Shown here: one piece after another, positions 48,768 through 56,821 of the stretch
How the letters are laid out: every line of letters starts with the position of its first letter
Position numbering within the stretch: the first letter of the stretch is position 1
Virus record (IMG/VR): IMGVR_UViG_3300021479_000014
Coordinates: 1-64,000 of that record
Length of the DNA: 64,000 nt
Reading direction: 5' to 3' (one strand)
Source: a virus
Notes under the pieces: generated by a model
The model's database searches: none
What the model was told of the DNA's origin: nothing
Seen by the model: only the letters and a program-made list of their open reading frames with translations
Program-made: the position numbers and the translations under genes

Positions 48768-49591
48768 GTGATGCACACGCTAGAGACATTATGAATACAG
48801 CCGCATCTGGTAATCTTGTGCTAGATGATGAACTCCTAAAATTAGGAGGGATGGGCACTGAGAATGTCAAGGCTAAAGATGTTGTTATTCCTCGCCTAGT
48901 CATTCTGCAAGCTCTATCTCCACAACTCAATAAAAAGAAAGCTGAGTTTATTGAGGGCGCAGAGATTGGTGACTTTTGTAATGTTGCCACTGGCGACATT
49001 TACAAGGAATCAATTCTTGTTGTTCCTTGCCATTTCGCTACAGCATATATGGAATGGACAAAGAACAGAGGTGGTCTAGCTGGTAACCACGGAGATGATC
49101 CTTCCATTCTAGCTAAAACAACTCAGAATGACAAACGAGAGAACATATTGCCTAATGGCAATGTGATTCAAGAACAGGCGCAATGGTTTTGCTTGGTACA
49201 AAATGGTGCGCAATGGCAGCGTTCATTCTTGCCACTAAAAGCAACCAATCTAAAACATAGCAGAAAATGGCTAACACTCTGTCAAACGGAGACAGTCCAA
49301 CTTCCAAATGGAGAGTTCTGGAAGCCACCTCTTTTTTGGCGTTCTTGGAAGCTCATTATTGTTGACGACAGTAATGACCAAGGAGACTGGGCGACATTCC
49401 GTCCAGAAAAAGGCGATTTAATAATGGATATTGATCCAAATCGCCAGCTTCTTAGAATGTGCAAATCATTCTACGAAGATATTAGAACTGAAAAGGTTCG
49501 TCCTGACATCGAACAGACTCAGGATGAAGGTGGTCCTATTATTGAAGGTAGTAGGGCTAAAGGCCCTGATGACAAAGACGTAGCGTTTTGA
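48764..49591 (+). CDS. phage single-stranded DNA-binding protein
   Basis: DVVIPRLVILQALSPQ; acidic tail DDKDVAF. Confidence 0.7.
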   Translation: MSDAHARDIMNTAASGNLVLDDELLKLGGMGTENVKAKDVVIPRLVILQALSPQLNKKKAEFIEGAEIGDFCNVATGDIYKESILVVPCHFATAYMEWTKNRGGLAGNHGDDPSILAKTTQNDKRENILPNGNVIQEQAQWFCLVQNGAQWQRSFLPLKATNLKHSRKWLTLCQTETVQLPNGEFWKPPLFWRSWKLIIVDDSNDQGDWATFRPEKGDLIMDIDPNRQLLRMCKSFYEDIRTEKVRPDIEQTQDEGGPIIEGSRAKGPDDKDVAF

Positions 49592-50028
49592 AAGGAGAAA
49601 GCATGTCTGAAGAAAACGTTGAGCGCGCAACAATAGACATTGAAAATCTAATAAAAGGTGAAGCATCTAGGCCAAGATTTCTACGCCAAATAGAAGCAAT
49701 ACCAGTTAAAGAACCAATGCCTGAACCTAAACCACCTAAGATAGATCATACATATCTTCCTCTAGATGCCCTTGAGGAAGTATCACGTTCTCTTATGTAT
49801 GGCGCTGCAAAACGAGAAGCTTGGAATTGGGCTGTAAATCCAATTAGCTGGACAGAACGTTTGGCTAAAGCGCAACGCCATATATTTGAATTCCAGAAAG
49901 GGATAAATATTGATCCTGCTTCTGGAGATGCGCAACTTCAGCATCTTGCATGTGCCATAACTCAACTTATGTTCTTGCAGTCATATGTTATAAATGACGC
50001 AGGAACGGACGATAGATTCAAGCGGTAA
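49588..50028 (+). CDS. dATP/dGTP diphosphohydrolase-domain protein (DUF5664)
   Basis: ALEEV...YGA.K...NW....W......RH......D..SG...HLA.A....FL. Confidence 0.8.
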   Translation: MKGESMSEENVERATIDIENLIKGEASRPRFLRQIEAIPVKEPMPEPKPPKIDHTYLPLDALEEVSRSLMYGAAKREAWNWAVNPISWTERLAKAQRHIFEFQKGINIDPASGDAQLQHLACAITQLMFLQSYVINDAGTDDRFKR

Positions 50029-50142
50029 TATTTATGGCGCGATCAGGCTACAGAAGCTTGGTGAGTGGACCTTATGCTTCGAGGACTAATTCCAGGAAAG
50101 TGGGAGGCAGCTTTCACTGGCGCGCCTATTTGGAGGATTAAA

Positions 50143-50340
50143 ATGGCAAAAGACGTAGTGAATTATAAAGAGTTTGACTGCATAGATTGTCATTGCCACG
50201 TCTATACTTGGATGGATGATCCAAGAGATCGTTGTGCTGTCTGTACATGGATATACATGCAGCCCAATTTAACTAAAAGTGAAATCGCTGAAATACGGTT
50301 GATAACTGCAACACCAATCTTGGAGAAGAATGATGACTAA
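50143..50340 (+). CDS. Zn-binding hypothetical protein
   Basis: GGAGG RBS; CIDC..CAVC. Confidence 0.55.
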   Translation: MAKDVVNYKEFDCIDCHCHVYTWMDDPRDRCAVCTWIYMQPNLTKSEIAEIRLITATPILEKNDD

Positions 50341-53972: not shown

Positions 53973-54397
53973 TAATACTGGTTGACATTGATCATACTGT
54001 TGCAAACGCCTTCTGGCGCGACGGTATGATTGGGACTGAAACTTGGGATTACTATCACGAGCAGTCTAAATTCGACAAGCCATTTAAGAACGTAGTGAAT
54101 TTATTAAATGCTTTATCCAATTCTGGATATAATATAATGGGCATAACAGGGAGGAATGAAAAACATAGACAATTGACTGTTGCTTGGTTAGTACAGAACA
54201 AAGTTGATATAGATGAATTATTGATGCGCCCAGATGATGACTATACTAAGAATGGAGAACTAAAAGTCAAACTAATACAGGAATACTTCAAAGGAGACTT
54301 CAAAGAAATACACTTCCTTATTGATGATAATGAAGATGCAATCCTAGCGTTTATGGCTATAGGTATCGCAACACTCCAGATAAGGAACATAAGATGA
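53969..54397 (+). CDS. HAD-family phosphatase (PNKP phosphatase-like)
   Basis: DIDHT, ITGR, LLMRP, IDD. Confidence 0.85.
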   Translation: MIILVDIDHTVANAFWRDGMIGTETWDYYHEQSKFDKPFKNVVNLLNALSNSGYNIMGITGRNEKHRQLTVAWLVQNKVDIDELLMRPDDDYTKNGELKVKLIQEYFKGDFKEIHFLIDDNEDAILAFMAIGIATLQIRNIR

Positions 54398-55269
54398 TCG
54401 TATTCGAGATGCCATGTCACAGAGGTCATCTATTAGCGCACATTGTTACTGTGGCAAGAAACACTAAATCTGACAAAATTGCTTTTGCAGTTGCTACAAA
54501 TGGCAAAGAAATGCATGGTAGGGAAGATTATAACATACTTACTCATAATTTTGCTTCTGAATATATCCCAAACGAAATTACAGATCCTTGGGTCTCAATG
54601 GTAGAGTTGCGCGCCAATGCAAATAAAGTGGCCACTAAATATTTTGACTACCAATATAGAATTATGGGTGATCATAACTTTATATTTAAGGATGGTTGGG
54701 AAGACTATATACTTGAAGCTGTTGACGATATGAAAAGATTTTCCAATCTAGTTAAACGACCTTGCTACATGGGTATGGGTGGTGCTTTTGGATCATATGG
54801 TCACGGACGAAAAGCATTTATTGGTCCGCAGCCTATATTTCCATGCGGTAGAGGGATCATCTATAATATGCCATTTGTTTGGGAGTTTATGGAGAGATTG
54901 CCTTGTGCTGGAGAAGAACAGTACATGACATCAATTCTATTCAAACGAGGCCATGTTCCGCTTAGAAAGATGATGAGTCCAATTCATCATACGATGAATA
55001 CTAATCGCTCTGTATTGGATAATATAAATACTGATGTATACAATCCAGAACTTATTAGGCAAATTTGGAATGATCCTAATTGGATGTTTACACCCAAATA
55101 TTCTAATACGCGCAGCCCTCCTCCTGGGCGCTACTTTGCTCATTGTCCAAGAAATGCTATGAAAGAAATGGCAAAATTAAAAGCTTTTTTGTTAACACTT
55201 CCAGGTGTAGAAGAATTCACTAGACCAGACTATGGGATAAAACTGAAAGGAAAGGATCTATTCATATGA
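54394..55269 (+). CDS. putative GT-A glycosyltransferase-like protein
   Basis: N-terminal beta-Pro start, MVELRANA, RIMGDHNFIF at the DxD position. Confidence 0.45.
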   Translation: MIVFEMPCHRGHLLAHIVTVARNTKSDKIAFAVATNGKEMHGREDYNILTHNFASEYIPNEITDPWVSMVELRANANKVATKYFDYQYRIMGDHNFIFKDGWEDYILEAVDDMKRFSNLVKRPCYMGMGGAFGSYGHGRKAFIGPQPIFPCGRGIIYNMPFVWEFMERLPCAGEEQYMTSILFKRGHVPLRKMMSPIHHTMNTNRSVLDNINTDVYNPELIRQIWNDPNWMFTPKYSNTRSPPPGRYFAHCPRNAMKEMAKLKAFLLTLPGVEEFTRPDYGIKLKGKDLFI

Positions 55270-56018
55270 TTCTTCTTAATAAAGAAATTGAACCTTTATT
55301 CTGGACTCCTAGTCGTCTTGATAAAGATAGTTCTTGGTGGGGTCATGTGCCATTTGCCCATTGGATGGTATCAAATTGTAAACCTCGTAGCCTAGTTGAA
55401 TTAGGAACTGAGAAAGGCGTATCTTACGCAGCTTTCTGTGATGCAATAGCTAAGTCATATATTTTCAAAGCTAAACTTTTTGCTGTTGATACTTGGAAAG
55501 GAGATAATCATACAGGATCGTATGATGATAGTGTTTATCAAGAATTATATGAATTCAATGATGCTCATTATTCTAGTTTTTCCAAATTATTACGTATGAC
55601 TTTTGATGATGCACTAGATGTATTTTTTGATCATACAATAGATATTCTTCATATAGATGGATATCACACATATAATGCTATTAGTCACGACTTTAATAGC
55701 TGGCGTATAAAGCTCTCTGATAGAGCAGTTGTTCTTATCCATGATACCAATATACGGAATAAAGAGGATTTTGGTGTTTGGAAATTTTTTGAAGAATTAA
55801 CACAAAAATTTCCAACTTTTAATTTCCTCCATTCTTATGGTCTTGGTATTGTCGCAATTGGTAGTGATCCTCCACAATCAATTATAGATTTATGCTCATT
55901 AAGTGATAGTGATATAGAAAAAGTCAGTAATATCTTTGCGCATTTAGGAGCGATTTGGGTTGGTGTAAACCGTTCTTATCGCTCATTAGATCTTCTTAAT
56001 GGTGGGAGCATACGATGA
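55266..56018 (+). CDS. class I SAM methyltransferase (Methyltransf_24-like)
   Basis: VELGT..G.S, AVDTW.GD, IDILHIDG.HTY, HDT. Confidence 0.9.
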   Translation: MILLNKEIEPLFWTPSRLDKDSSWWGHVPFAHWMVSNCKPRSLVELGTEKGVSYAAFCDAIAKSYIFKAKLFAVDTWKGDNHTGSYDDSVYQELYEFNDAHYSSFSKLLRMTFDDALDVFFDHTIDILHIDGYHTYNAISHDFNSWRIKLSDRAVVLIHDTNIRNKEDFGVWKFFEELTQKFPTFNFLHSYGLGIVAIGSDPPQSIIDLCSLSDSDIEKVSNIFAHLGAIWVGVNRSYRSLDLLNGGSIR

Positions 56019-56821
56019 GACTAGCTTTCAGTTTGATGTGCGCATATGTGGAACGTTTTGGTAAACTACGGGAGAGTTTTCATTATAAAATAGGTGATCC
56101 AATTACTTCTTTTACCAAAAATGCGTTGACGAATCCACCATTTCAAAGATATTATTATTATGATTTTAATACTCCAGATTGGAATGTAGAATGGAAATGT
56201 TACAATCCATCAGAAGGATTAATTGATTTTTTCTCTATTCGCCAAGATGCTTTGGACATGTCACCACATGCAGATTTCATCTTTATGCTAGATGATGAAT
56301 TTGTATTCAAAGAAGGATCAACAGAAGTTATAAATCAATGTTGCAGATATTTATATGATAACCCAGATTGTGGCGCCATATATCTTGCTGGTAATTTTGG
56401 TGGCGAAGGTGATCATCACGGAGATGAAATATATATTACAAATAATAAACTTTTGAGTTTAAACCGCGGTATCGTGTTGCGCAACAAGCCTGTGAATATG
56501 GACAACCGTCTTCATGGATTAGGTTGGGCAGACGAAACTGTTATTGGCTTTACTAACTTGATACAAGGATATTATCTTGCCAGAAGGATGCATGTACCAA
56601 TTGAACATGATAGTATAAATTGGCTAAGTGAAGATAATAAAAATTTGAATTACAATACGAATTACATTATAAATGAAGGAATTGGAGCTGGAATCAACAG
56701 AACAATAGGAAGATGGAATAAACTTGATGTTTGGCCAGAAAATATATTTAACCTATATCGTCAAGCGGCGATGTTGAAAGGGTTCGTGCCTAAGTACGAT
56801 GTTGACGGGAGTGTACTATGA
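56015..56821 (+). CDS. putative GT-A glycosyltransferase-like protein
   Basis: SIRQDAL...ADFIFMLDDEFVF; GWADE. Confidence 0.55.
   Translation: MRLAFSLMCAYVERFGKLRESFHYKIGDPITSFTKNALTNPPFQRYYYYDFNTPDWNVEWKCYNPSEGLIDFFSIRQDALDMSPHADFIFMLDDEFVFKEGSTEVINQCCRYLYDNPDCGAIYLAGNFGGEGDHHGDEIYITNNKLLSLNRGIVLRNKPVNMDNRLHGLGWADETVIGFTNLIQGYYLARRMHVPIEHDSINWLSEDNKNLNYNTNYIINEGIGAGINRTIGRWNKLDVWPENIFNLYRQAAMLKGFVPKYDVDGSVL

Follow-up and report, generated by a model that had tools for sequence, protein, structure and literature searches.

A predicted glycosyltransferase-methyltransferase trio in the DNA-polymerase operon of an uncultured phage, possibly directed at new phage DNA

Why should a phage carry two predicted sugar-transferring enzymes and a sugar-type methyltransferase inside the operon that encodes its DNA polymerase? 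The question is posed by a window of 64,000 nucleotides, positions 1 to 64,000 of the complete 80.6-kb virus record IMGVR_UViG_3300021479_000014. A preliminary description of positions 49588-56821 had listed a run of nucleotide-metabolism genes between SSB and DnaQ/DnaE, ending in an AT-rich, coupled trio of GT-A-like, methyltransferase and GT-A-like genes, and had proposed a new DNA hypermodification pathway. What it observed proved to be correct, all of the genes that it named being present on the + strand; its interpretation, however, gains only partial support.

The operon and its conserved core

Gene calls, Pfam and PHROG matches, and features visible in the translations define the following genes.

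28277..29821 (-): D5/VapE-type primase-helicase (514 aa), ending ..SHNLF
44709..45950 (-): prim-pol-like protein (413 aa; phrog_2478), C-terminal tail ..VKDLFN
47619..48767 (+): ATP-dependent DNA ligase, C-terminal tail ..KPRKDLFA
48764..49591 (+): SSB-like protein (Pam3_Gp34 family) with an SSB-type acidic C-terminal tip (DDKDVAF here, DDKDIPF or DDDIPF in relatives)
49588..50028 (+): MazG-like protein of PF18909 (former DUF5664; dATP/dGTP diphosphohydrolase N-terminal domain; E 2e-17)
50330..51067 (+): classical, FabG-like SDR (adh_short, E 1e-16)
51067..51627 (+): DUF7307 (Pam3 gp33-like) protein
51637..52518 (+): FAD/NAD Rossmann protein, in which only an N-terminal motif is recognised (E 1e-5) but which matches phrog_4828 over its whole length
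53040..53783 (+): ThyX-type flavin-dependent thymidylate synthase (120 bits), with RTR replacing the RHR motif
53969..54397 (+): HAD phosphatase (PNKP phosphatase-domain type)
54394..55269 (+): GT1 (291 aa), predicted GT-A fold, C-terminal tail ..KLKGKDLFI
55266..56018 (+): class I SAM methyltransferase (250 aa), Methyltransf_24 (PF13578, E 3e-19)
56015..56821 (+): GT2 (268 aa), predicted GT-A fold
56818..57306 (+): P0004 (162 aa), of no assigned function, conserved between the GT slot and DnaQ
57303..57836 (+): DnaQ-like proofreading exonuclease (RNase_T, E 1e-15)
57800..60718 (+): DnaE-type DNA polymerase, C-terminal tail ..YQGADLFA

HAD, GT1, methyltransferase, GT2, P0004 and DnaQ are joined in a single chain of ATGA start/stop overlaps, followed directly by DnaE. 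The AT-richness of the trio is modest: GC content is 0.32-0.36 over 55000-56500, compared to 0.37-0.43 in neighbouring stretches, with a reversed AT skew.

The suggestion that the replication core resembles PB1-like modules is supported. DnaE is 33-35% identical to its counterparts in Pbunavirus, Wifcevirus and Burkholderia phages, and the FAD-type protein occurs in 362 such phage records. The modules of Pbunavirus, Wifcevirus and Myosmarvirus follow the order FAD-type protein, ThyX, (PNKP/HAD), DnaQ, DnaE, helicase, with the SDR, a MazG-like protein and the ligase also present, although identity is only about 25-35%, those phages have no GT or methyltransferase in the slot and their DnaE lacks the DLF tail discussed below. 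The SDR, previously regarded as an addition, is not one, since it occurs in Myosmarvirus, in E. coli phage records (27 hits) and in actinophage modules. The MazG-like protein, SDR, FAD-type protein, ThyX and HAD belong to the conserved core of DnaE-type replication modules, shared with relatives that lack the GTs, and are not a pathway specific to the trio.

Nor does anything support the proposed C5-substituted uracil. Searches of the complete genome found no ThyA homologue and no TET/JBP match, and the RTR variant of ThyX is shared with two of the three more distant relatives compared, both of them GT-less. The proposed TGA/TCA sequence specificity is speculation, although a real TGA/TCA-free island does exist elsewhere in the window.

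The predicted glycosyltransferases and the methyltransferase

Neither GT1 nor GT2 has a Pfam hit, even at E<=10, and absence of a GT-A fold had been named beforehand as grounds for rejecting the proposal. AlphaFold2 models show that both proteins have the fold. The GT2 model (pLDDT 92) yields 268 hits in a Foldseek search of the PDB at E<=1e-3, those listed all being GT-A glycosyltransferases, and a VIA Z of about 14; the GT1 model (pLDDT 72) gives GT-A hits at Z 12-13. The two are distant paralogues (BLASTP E 2e-4; hhalign E 3e-4). GT1 is basic (pI 8.95, against 5.1-5.9 for most neighbouring proteins) and has an invariant D-H-N where GT-A enzymes have DxD. GT2 is acidic (pI 5.25) and has the R..DDE (family DDD)..DE motifs. 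The two enzymes are of an undescribed viral family. For GT2, a profile search of 1.84e9 representative proteins finds only 143 clusters, and only 1 of 37 members reaches Pfam GT2.

The methyltransferase is 45-60% identical to bacterial proteins that sources name 'O-antigen biosynthesis protein' or 'O-methyltransferase', while the best hit in an isolated phage is the methyltransferase part of a Synechococcus phage glycosyltransferase fusion. It is probably a sugar O-methyltransferase taken from bacterial glycan biosynthesis, which fits O-methylation of a sugar.

A C-terminal tail shared with replication proteins

The tripeptide DLF occurs seven times in about 138 ORFs of the genome and six of these lie within the last five residues, in DnaE, the ligase, the prim-pol-like protein, GT1 and two small ORFs, whereas shuffled proteins give about 0.07 on average and at most 3 in 2000 trials. 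The primase-helicase ends similarly, in NLF. The tail is conserved in relatives' ligase, DnaE and GT1, and is kept, behind a variable linker, in all 8 GT1-family members whose C-terminus reaches that far, out of 10. In the GT1 model it lies in a stretch predicted to be disordered (pLDDT below 50). D-L-F matches positions 3-5 of the bacterial beta-clamp-binding consensus QL[S/D]LF (bioRxiv 10.64898/2026.05.27.728225), of which QADMF in E. coli Pol III alpha is an example, and, like that motif, sits at a flexible C-terminus and is present on the polymerase and ligase, two classic clamp clients. However, position 1, which matters most for E. coli clamp binding, is not Q, and position 2 is K, R or A rather than aliphatic, so that the hub might not be the beta clamp but another replisome protein. 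The phage has no credible DnaN of its own.

Distant homologues of the GT family in three other phage lineages also sit beside replication or nucleotide genes. A 30%-identical GT lies directly upstream of DnaQ-DnaE in a GC-rich phage. The homologue in Rhizobium Cuauhnahuacvirus lies next to gyrase, an NDP-sugar epimerase and a ParB-like gene. That of Streptococcus phage GXN1 (hhalign probability 94%, E 1.5e-7) lies in the order PolA, kinase-like protein, unknown, GT-A, GT, GT, YfbR 5'-deoxynucleotidase, unknown (212 aa), SbcD.

Among closer phages the GTs are mosaic. In L002/L004, backbone proteins are mostly 92-99% identical (range 79-99%), but GT2 is only 52% identical. Another phage, L017, has a 51%-identical GT1 alone, at another site, while L001, L003 and L005 have GT2 only, in two copies in L003.

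Possible acceptors

The reading that we favour, though only about as likely as not, is that the trio is a replisome-associated DNA glycosylation cassette inserted in the variable slot between ThyX/HAD and DnaQ-DnaE. In this view GT1 would dock through its flexible tail on the same hub as DnaE, ligase and primases, most simply the host beta sliding clamp given that the phage encodes none, and from there would transfer a sugar from a host nucleotide-sugar to newly made phage DNA; GT2, a paralogue with a canonical DDD/ED active site, and the O-antigen-type methyltransferase would then extend the sugar and O-methylate it. Rapid swapping of GT alleles between near-identical phages would fit an arms race with nucleases that read the DNA surface. 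A DNA target gains support from GT1's replisome-type C-terminal tail and from the conserved linkage of the GT family to replication genes in other lineages; the operon position, the mosaicism of the GTs, the basic pI of GT1 and the existence of GT-A DNA glycosyltransferases in phages also speak for this reading. The analysis itself demonstrates the gene content, the translational coupling, the GT-A folds (by modelling), the shared tail, the synteny in other lineages and the affinity of the methyltransferase for bacterial O-antigen-type enzymes; clamp binding, DNA as the acceptor, the order of the reactions and the identity of base and sugar are inferences. Against this reading, no enzyme known to make an acceptor hydroxyl is present and no dNMP kinase was seen among the ORFs scanned, GT1 lacks DxD, and GT2 and the methyltransferase are acidic and have no tail. 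Furthermore, the genome shows strong palindrome avoidance (CATG z = -9.7; CTGCAG 0 observed against 14.4 expected), which is unexpected if the DNA were fully protected and argues against blanket protection.

GT-A DNA glycosyltransferases are known in phages, namely the TAGT/JGT-like enzymes associated with 5mYOX/TET or ThyS (bioRxiv 10.1101/2023.12.21.572611) and the T2/T6 beta-glucosyl-HMC-alpha-glucosyltransferase. As here, these are soluble viral enzymes of about 270-290 aa with R..DDD..ED-type motifs (the GT2 family consensus), encoded next to DNA replication genes, with several GTs per cluster together with sugar-tailoring enzymes. The present proteins, however, show only generic, GT-A-level structural similarity to BFVD models named 'TET-associated glycosyltransferase', there is no 5mYOX in the genome, GT1 has D-H-N, and the cassette includes a sugar-type O-methyltransferase, a class of activity for which the text of that paper has no occurrence of 'O-methyl'. 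The T4 alpha- and beta-glucosyltransferases, acting on 5-hydroxymethylcytosine DNA, offer a parallel in early or middle expression with the replication genes, a variable set of GTs among relatives and, by inference here, post-replicative sugar transfer at the fork and tethering to the sliding clamp, T4 AGT being reported to bind gp45 (Sommer et al. 2004). The T4 enzymes, though, have the GT-B fold and need hmC made by a ThyA homologue, together with a dCTPase and a dNMP kinase, while the present phage has a DnaE polymerase and a tail resembling the bacterial beta-clamp motif (..DLF) rather than the gp45-binding tail.

The alternative that the trio glycosylates and methylates virion proteins or a host surface glycan (for immune or receptor masking, or superinfection exclusion), its place in the replication operon being an accident of insertion into a variable slot, survives best among the others but appears unlikely; the preliminary description had already raised modification of such targets. 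An O-methyltransferase plus tandem GTs modify capsid and tail-tube proteins in cluster O mycobacteriophages (Freeman et al. 2023, via PMC11600133), a matching gene content, and the methyltransferase is closest to O-antigen-type enzymes. TarP, RmlT and GalNAc-transferases are among the structural matches, and palindrome avoidance suggests that the DNA is not shielded. The slot before DnaQ is, moreover, a general insertion hot spot carrying unrelated cargo in relatives: in Serratia phage MTx it holds an SDR and a glyoxalase-like gene. On the other hand, GT1 carries the replisome-type tail, the trio is coupled translationally to DnaQ/DnaE and not expressed with the structural genes on the opposite strand, and the homologues in three other lineages also sit among DNA or nucleotide genes. 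In the structural alignments neither GT model aligns to a membrane domain of the membrane-bound synthases among the matches, and no Ser/Thr-rich C-terminal extension was found on 20 candidate structural proteins.

It is more doubtful still that GT1 is a protein glycosyltransferase aimed, in host takeover, at the sliding clamp or another replisome or host replication protein, with the tail serving as a substrate-recognition peptide rather than a tether to DNA. GT-A enzymes do include protein-modifying transferases, and GalNAc-transferases and a GlcNAc-transferase family appear among the structural neighbours, the tail implies contact with a replisome hub, and the lack of an acceptor-making enzyme would be no problem. 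Nevertheless, this does not explain the need for a second GT and a sugar methyltransferase, nor the rapid allele swapping; the phage's own DnaE and ligase appear to use the same hub and would also be affected; and the family's contexts next to a 5'-deoxynucleotidase and an NDP-sugar epimerase look like DNA or nucleotide pathways.

Equally doubtful is action on free nucleotides, nucleosides or another small molecule and not on polymerised DNA, whether by glycosylating a dNMP or nucleoside before incorporation or by detoxifying a nucleoside analogue, for although AvpGT, a bacterial GT-A that 3'-O-glucosylates nucleoside analogues (PMC11959488), is the top Foldseek PDB hit of GT2 and has Z 12.8 for GT1, and the neighbours include an NTP pyrophosphatase-like protein, ThyX and a HAD phosphatase, the AvpGT match is tied with dozens of unrelated GT-A enzymes, no dedicated kinase to re-activate a modified dNMP was seen among the ORFs scanned, a clamp-type tail makes no sense for a small-molecule enzyme, and the nucleotide enzymes are shared with relatives that lack the GTs.

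Gene order and composition of the replication operon

The window is bases 1-64000 of a linear IMG/VR virus record of 80,609 bp that CheckV rates 100% complete; the part beyond the window was read as locus L009. The genes of interest lie in a long + strand operon of replication and nucleotide genes, for which Pfam, PHROGs and NCBIfam together give the following order.

Gene order in the replication operon (window coordinates)
47619-48767, ATP-dependent ligase
48764-49591, Pam3_Gp34-like protein
49588-50028, PF18909 protein (formerly DUF5664, MazG-like)
50330-51067, classical SDR
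51067-51627, DUF7307 protein
51637-52518, protein with an N-terminal FAD/NAD Rossmann motif (phrog_4828)
53040-53783, ThyX
53969-54397, HAD PNKP-type phosphatase
54394-55269, predicted glycosyltransferase GT1 (P0001)
55266-56018, Methyltransf_24 methyltransferase (MTase, P0002)
56015-56821, predicted glycosyltransferase GT2 (P0003)
56818-57306, P0004
57303-57836, DnaQ
57800-60718, DnaE
61215-62930, SNF2 helicase

The observation made in the preliminary description, of a set of nucleotide enzymes followed by a GT-MTase-GT trio between an SSB gene and DnaQ/DnaE, is thus borne out. The Pam3_Gp34-like protein ends in DDKDVAF, and its relatives in DDKDIPF or DDDIPF, the classic SSB tip, so that calling it an SSB is reasonable. 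The HAD, GT1, MTase, GT2, P0004 and DnaQ genes are joined by ATGA overlaps. GC content falls to 0.32-0.36 across the MTase and part of GT2, with reversed AT skew, which fits a horizontally acquired insert.

Comparison with other phages separates the core of this operon from its additions. DnaE is 33-35% identical to DnaE of Vibrio, Cronobacter, Burkholderia, Wifcevirus and, more distantly, Pseudomonas phages. The FAD-type protein has full-length homologues in 362 phage records, 292 of them from Pseudomonas phages, and the SDR has homologues in Erwinia, Serratia (Myosmarvirus), E. coli and many actinobacterial phages. Annotated relatives show the same order: Burkholderia phage WTB runs ThyX, an unknown gene, PNKP, DnaQ, DnaE, while Serratia phage MTx runs ThyX, PNKP, SDR, an unknown gene, a glyoxalase-like gene, DnaQ, DnaE, with MazG and the ligase nearby. 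The PF18909 protein, SDR, FAD-type protein, ThyX and HAD phosphatase therefore belong to a conserved DnaE-type module, and the stretch just before DnaQ is a variable slot. The preliminary description had regarded the SDR as an addition along with the trio, but only the trio is one. Nor does the SDR appear to be part of a sugar pathway, a possibility we rejected since it is a classical FabG-type SDR rather than an extended NDP-sugar SDR and occurs in relatives that lack the GTs.

Two predicted GT-A glycosyltransferases and their neighbouring methyltransferase

Sequence comparisons alone say little about GT1 and GT2. Neither has a Pfam hit at E<=10 or an NCBIfam hit, and the same is true of P0004; sequence searches of solved structures gave no match for GT1 or GT2 and nothing useful for the MTase or the PF18909 protein. 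Metagenome homologues do exist, 40 for GT2 and 10 for GT1, and AlphaFold2 run on their alignments gave a confident model of GT2 (pLDDT 92) and a fair one of GT1 (pLDDT 72, with the C-terminal 13 residues below 50). Both models match GT-A glycosyltransferases only, with the single Rossmann-like α/β/α fold of that class. The matches include SpsA, TarP/TarS, RmlT, GnT-I, GalNAc-transferases and the GT domains of hyaluronan and cellulose synthases. For GT2 the Foldseek E-value is about 1e-6 and the VIA Z score about 14 over about 215-225 residues, and for GT1 Z is 12-13; a structure search of the protein atlas agrees. The two proteins are distant paralogues of each other.

At the position of the DxD metal- and nucleotide-sugar-binding motif, GT2 has D93-D94-E95, the family consensus being DDD with D94 invariant, followed downstream by an acidic pair; the wider family consensus reads R..DDDF..G..ED. 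At the aligned position GT1 has an invariant D93-H94-N95, with R73 and E175-Q176-Y177 conserved, so that the motif is present in GT2 and absent from GT1. Metal-independent GT-A enzymes do exist, however, and one of them (4ayl) is among the structural matches of GT1.

The family is small and viral. A profile search of 1.84 billion cluster representatives gave only 143 clusters at E<=1e-3, only one of 37 distant members reaches the Pfam GT2 family (PF00535), and the nearest atlas clusters are almost all Uroviricota. A DNA-level search of the region against 50,697 phage records found no match, tblastn of GT1 against the same records found none, and GT2 hit only Rhizobium phages; searches for related loci with single distant members also found nothing. 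Among these 50,697 isolated phage genomes the GT family appears only in Rhizobium Cuauhnahuacvirus phages and one Streptococcus phage. Membership in the family of TET-associated glycosyltransferases (TAGT) is not supported by sequence: BFVD proteins bearing the name 'TET-associated glycosyltransferase' match at E about 3e-6 and TM about 0.45, no better than generic GT2 proteins.

The MTase has a PF13578 domain (70 bits) and is 45-60% identical to PF13578 proteins on large bacterial contigs, which sources name 'O-antigen biosynthesis protein', 'predicted O-methyltransferase' or 'class I SAM-dependent methyltransferase'. Its best hit in an isolated phage is the MTase half of a glycosyltransferase fusion in Synechococcus phage S-SRM01, next to a sulfotransferase and a sugar epimerase. 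Judged from these relationships, it is most likely a sugar O-methyltransferase taken from cellular glycan synthesis, not a DNA base methyltransferase, and the PHROG label 'DNA methyltransferase' is not informative.

The family was found in four settings. In the clade of the present phage the GTs always sit in the replication operon, but in changing combinations. Loci L002 and L004, from a sister phage, have backbone proteins mostly 92-99% identical (range 79-99%), GT1 at 92% and the MTase at 84%, yet GT2 (56015-56821, compared with L002:10001-10819 and L004:1969-2787) is only 52% identical, so that the GT gene looks exchanged as a cassette. The relative L017 has a 51%-identical GT1, its C-terminal tail kept, alone between the SDR and the DUF7307 gene, with no MTase or GT2; L001 and L005 have GT2 only, and L003 has two tandem GT2 paralogues. 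In a GC-rich clade (L006/L007) a 30%-identical GT lies directly upstream of DnaQ-DnaE. In Rhizobium phage Y65 the homologue follows gyrase A and B, an NDP-sugar epimerase and an unknown gene, with a ParB-like gene nearby. Lastly, in Streptococcus phage vB_SagM-GXN1 (L018; PQ819873.1, 31691-46212) the homologue (hhalign probability 94%, E 1.5e-7) lies in the order PolA, P-loop kinase-like protein, unknown, GT-A, GT, GT, YfbR-type 5'-deoxynucleotidase, unknown (212 aa), SbcD. This sparsely annotated 176-kb phage has an 1882-aa ORF fusing a UDG-like domain to an intein-containing family A polymerase upstream of the kinase-like gene, the three glycosyltransferase-type genes and the deoxynucleotidase, and is a candidate DNA hypermodification cluster in a cultured phage. 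Four lineages with different polymerases thus keep this GT family next to replication or nucleotide genes, which is the pattern of known DNA-glycosylation clusters (bioRxiv 10.1101/2023.12.21.572611; PMC13326640), although this is association and not proof.

Base-modifying enzymes and a shared C-terminal tail

We found no base-modifying step. Profiles for Tet_JBP (PF12851) and for ThyA-type thymidylate synthase (PF00303) matched nothing at E<=1 in the complete 80.6-kb record, leaving ThyX as the only thymidylate synthase and no recognised neighbour able to make 5hmC, 5hmU or 5hoC. ThyX aligns to the T. maritima enzyme and reads RTR where the ThyX motif has RHR, but the GT-less WTB and MTx enzymes read the same; for want of any difference from these two relatives, the idea of ThyX as a hydroxymethylase was rejected. 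In the comparison with the ThyX of L007, L011 and L013, ThyX of the present clade lacks a Cys-rich insertion of about 25 to about 50 residues that is present in WTB, MTx and L007, and all but L007 read RTR. No dNMP kinase was seen among the ORFs scanned, which did not include every small ORF, and neither a thymidylate-synthase homologue with altered product nor the dedicated kinase of T4-type pre-replicative hypermodification was found. A Z-genome (PurZ/MazZ) was also considered, but the PF18909 protein is its only link, and no PurZ-like protein was seen among the ORFs scanned, without a dedicated search.

The record as a whole (window plus L009) shows classic avoidance of palindromic restriction-type sites. 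CATG occurs 223 times against 368 expected (z = -9.7), CTGCAG 0 against 14.4, GGGCCC 0 against 6, TTCGAA 1 against 10.8 and GGATCC 10 against 25.6; ATCGAT is also low, whereas GCGC is over-represented (z = +6). Fully substituted genomes such as that of T4 are not known to behave in this way. The interpretation offered in the preliminary description is thus only partly supported, and the C5-substituted uracil that it proposed has no support. The TGA/TCA specificity that it suggested is speculative. Elsewhere in the window there is a 727-bp stretch (26810-27537) with no TGA or TCA on either strand, in a genome where the mean spacing is 25 bp and the next longest gap 182 bp. This island has a GC content of 0.595 against about 0.38 for the rest and covers a 153-aa ORF with no Pfam hit; the local dinucleotide expectation is 12.4, 0 of 5000 shuffles give zero, and TGA/TCA is the most depleted trinucleotide pair within it. 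By itself, however, the island is not evidence for a modification motif.

New evidence on the target comes from a shared C-terminal tail. In a non-overlapping set of about 138 ORFs the tripeptide DLF occurs seven times, and six of these lie within the last five residues: in DnaE (..QGADLFA), the ligase (..PRKDLFA), a prim-pol-like 413-aa protein (..VKDLFN; phrog_2478), GT1 (..KGKDLFI) and two small ORFs of 57 and 68 aa (30053-30226, - strand, and 43111-43317, + strand), which end in ..GRDLFAA and ..KKDLF and may be small replisome-hub binders or competitors. The D5/VapE primase-helicase ends in ..HNLF. Shuffling each protein gives about 0.07 such tails on average and never more than three in 2000 trials. 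The tail is conserved on the ligase, DnaE and GT1 of relatives, and is kept in all eight GT1-family members, out of ten, whose C-terminus reaches that far, behind a linker of variable length. In the GT1 model it lies in the low-confidence end, with pLDDT below 50. L017 carries in addition, between the ligase and the SSB-like gene, a 142-aa protein (L017:4592-5020) ending in ..MVDLFA, another client of the same tail motif.

D-L-F equals positions 3-5 of the bacterial clamp-binding consensus QL[S/D]LF, but the glutamine at position 1, which matters for E. coli binding, and the aliphatic residue at position 2 are missing: the two positions read G-K in GT1, R-K in the ligase, G-A in DnaE (with a Q one residue further upstream) and V-K in the prim-pol-like protein. 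The phage has no credible DnaN, the only candidate, an 11-bit match (E 0.017) inside a 482-aa ORF frame of the structural arm, having been rejected. The simplest reading of the tail is a docking peptide for the host β clamp, or for another replisome hub, that a glycosyltransferase shares with the polymerase, the ligase and the primases. GT1 is also the only basic protein of the trio, with a pI of 8.95 against 5.5 for the MTase and 5.25 for GT2.

Interpretation of the trio and a GC-rich segment downstream

In the reading that we favour, though with no more than even confidence, GT1 is tethered to the replisome hub through its tail and glycosylates nascent phage DNA, after which GT2 and the MTase extend and cap the sugar; allele swapping would then reflect selection by nucleases that read the modification. 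The gene content, the translational coupling, the folds, the tail statistics, the synteny and the affinity of the MTase for O-antigen-type enzymes come directly from our analysis, whereas binding to the hub (DnaN or another), transfer of a sugar to a base in DNA, the order of the steps and the identity of base and sugar are inferred. Several features weigh against this reading: the absence of an acceptor-making enzyme, the D-H-N of GT1, the lack of Q in the tails, the acidic and tail-less character of GT2 and the MTase, the palindrome avoidance, and the tolerance of the slot for unrelated cargo.

On this view the trio would work most like the phage GT-A (TAGT/JGT-like) and T-even glucosyltransferase systems, from which it differs in sequence family and in lacking a 5mYOX or ThyA-type partner. 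Tethering of a DNA glucosyltransferase to a clamp has a reported precedent in T4 AGT and gp45. New here are a DnaE-type phage without its own clamp, a β-clamp-like DLF tail, an unclassified GT-A family, and a predicted sugar O-methyltransferase in the cassette. Phage DNA glycosylation is a major counter-defence, all known routes to which need a hydroxylated base made by a ThyA homologue or a TET/JBP dioxygenase. If the target is DNA, the arrangement described here points to a new acceptor chemistry, to a new kind of DNA glycan capped by methylation, and to a general way for a phage that lacks its own clamp to tether modification enzymes to that of the host. The trio also offers a tractable three-gene cassette and a short peptide for direct tests.

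A bolder version, which we regard as unlikely although it is not excluded, holds that a previously undescribed family of viral GT-A enzymes glycosylates phage DNA at the replication fork, recruited through the clamp-type peptide, and that the sugar is then O-methylated, which would give the first O-methylated glycan on DNA. The acceptor would be either a canonical base or one made by a still unrecognised enzyme of the conserved ThyX/FAD-protein/SDR core. The same hidden chemistry could then explain why the related Wifcevirus phages resist restriction-modification systems without any known genome protection (PMC11990801), an outside hint that keeps such a core chemistry alive.

Of the alternatives, glycosylation of the virion or host surface survives best, though we consider it unlikely. 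It has a direct precedent in cluster O mycobacteriophages, where an O-methyltransferase and tandem GTs modify capsid and tail-tube proteins (PMC11600133), but it does not explain the tail. On 20 candidate structural ORFs we found no Ser/Thr-rich C-terminal acceptor segments, the maximum being 10 Ser/Thr residues in any 25-residue window, although acceptor rules outside actinophages are not known. Glycosylation of the clamp, or of another replisome protein, is less likely still. Equally doubtful is action on free nucleosides or nucleotides, suggested by a structural match to the nucleoside glycosyltransferase AvpGT that is tied with many unrelated GT-A enzymes.

Beyond the SNF2 helicase, a GC-rich (0.50-0.52) segment (63000-64000) holds a 279-aa ORF with a weak glycosyl-hydrolase-38 β-sandwich hit. 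Further on (L009:2848-3558) lies a 236-aa ORF with a C-terminal PEP-CTERM motif, which is unusual in a phage and a possible clue to the host.
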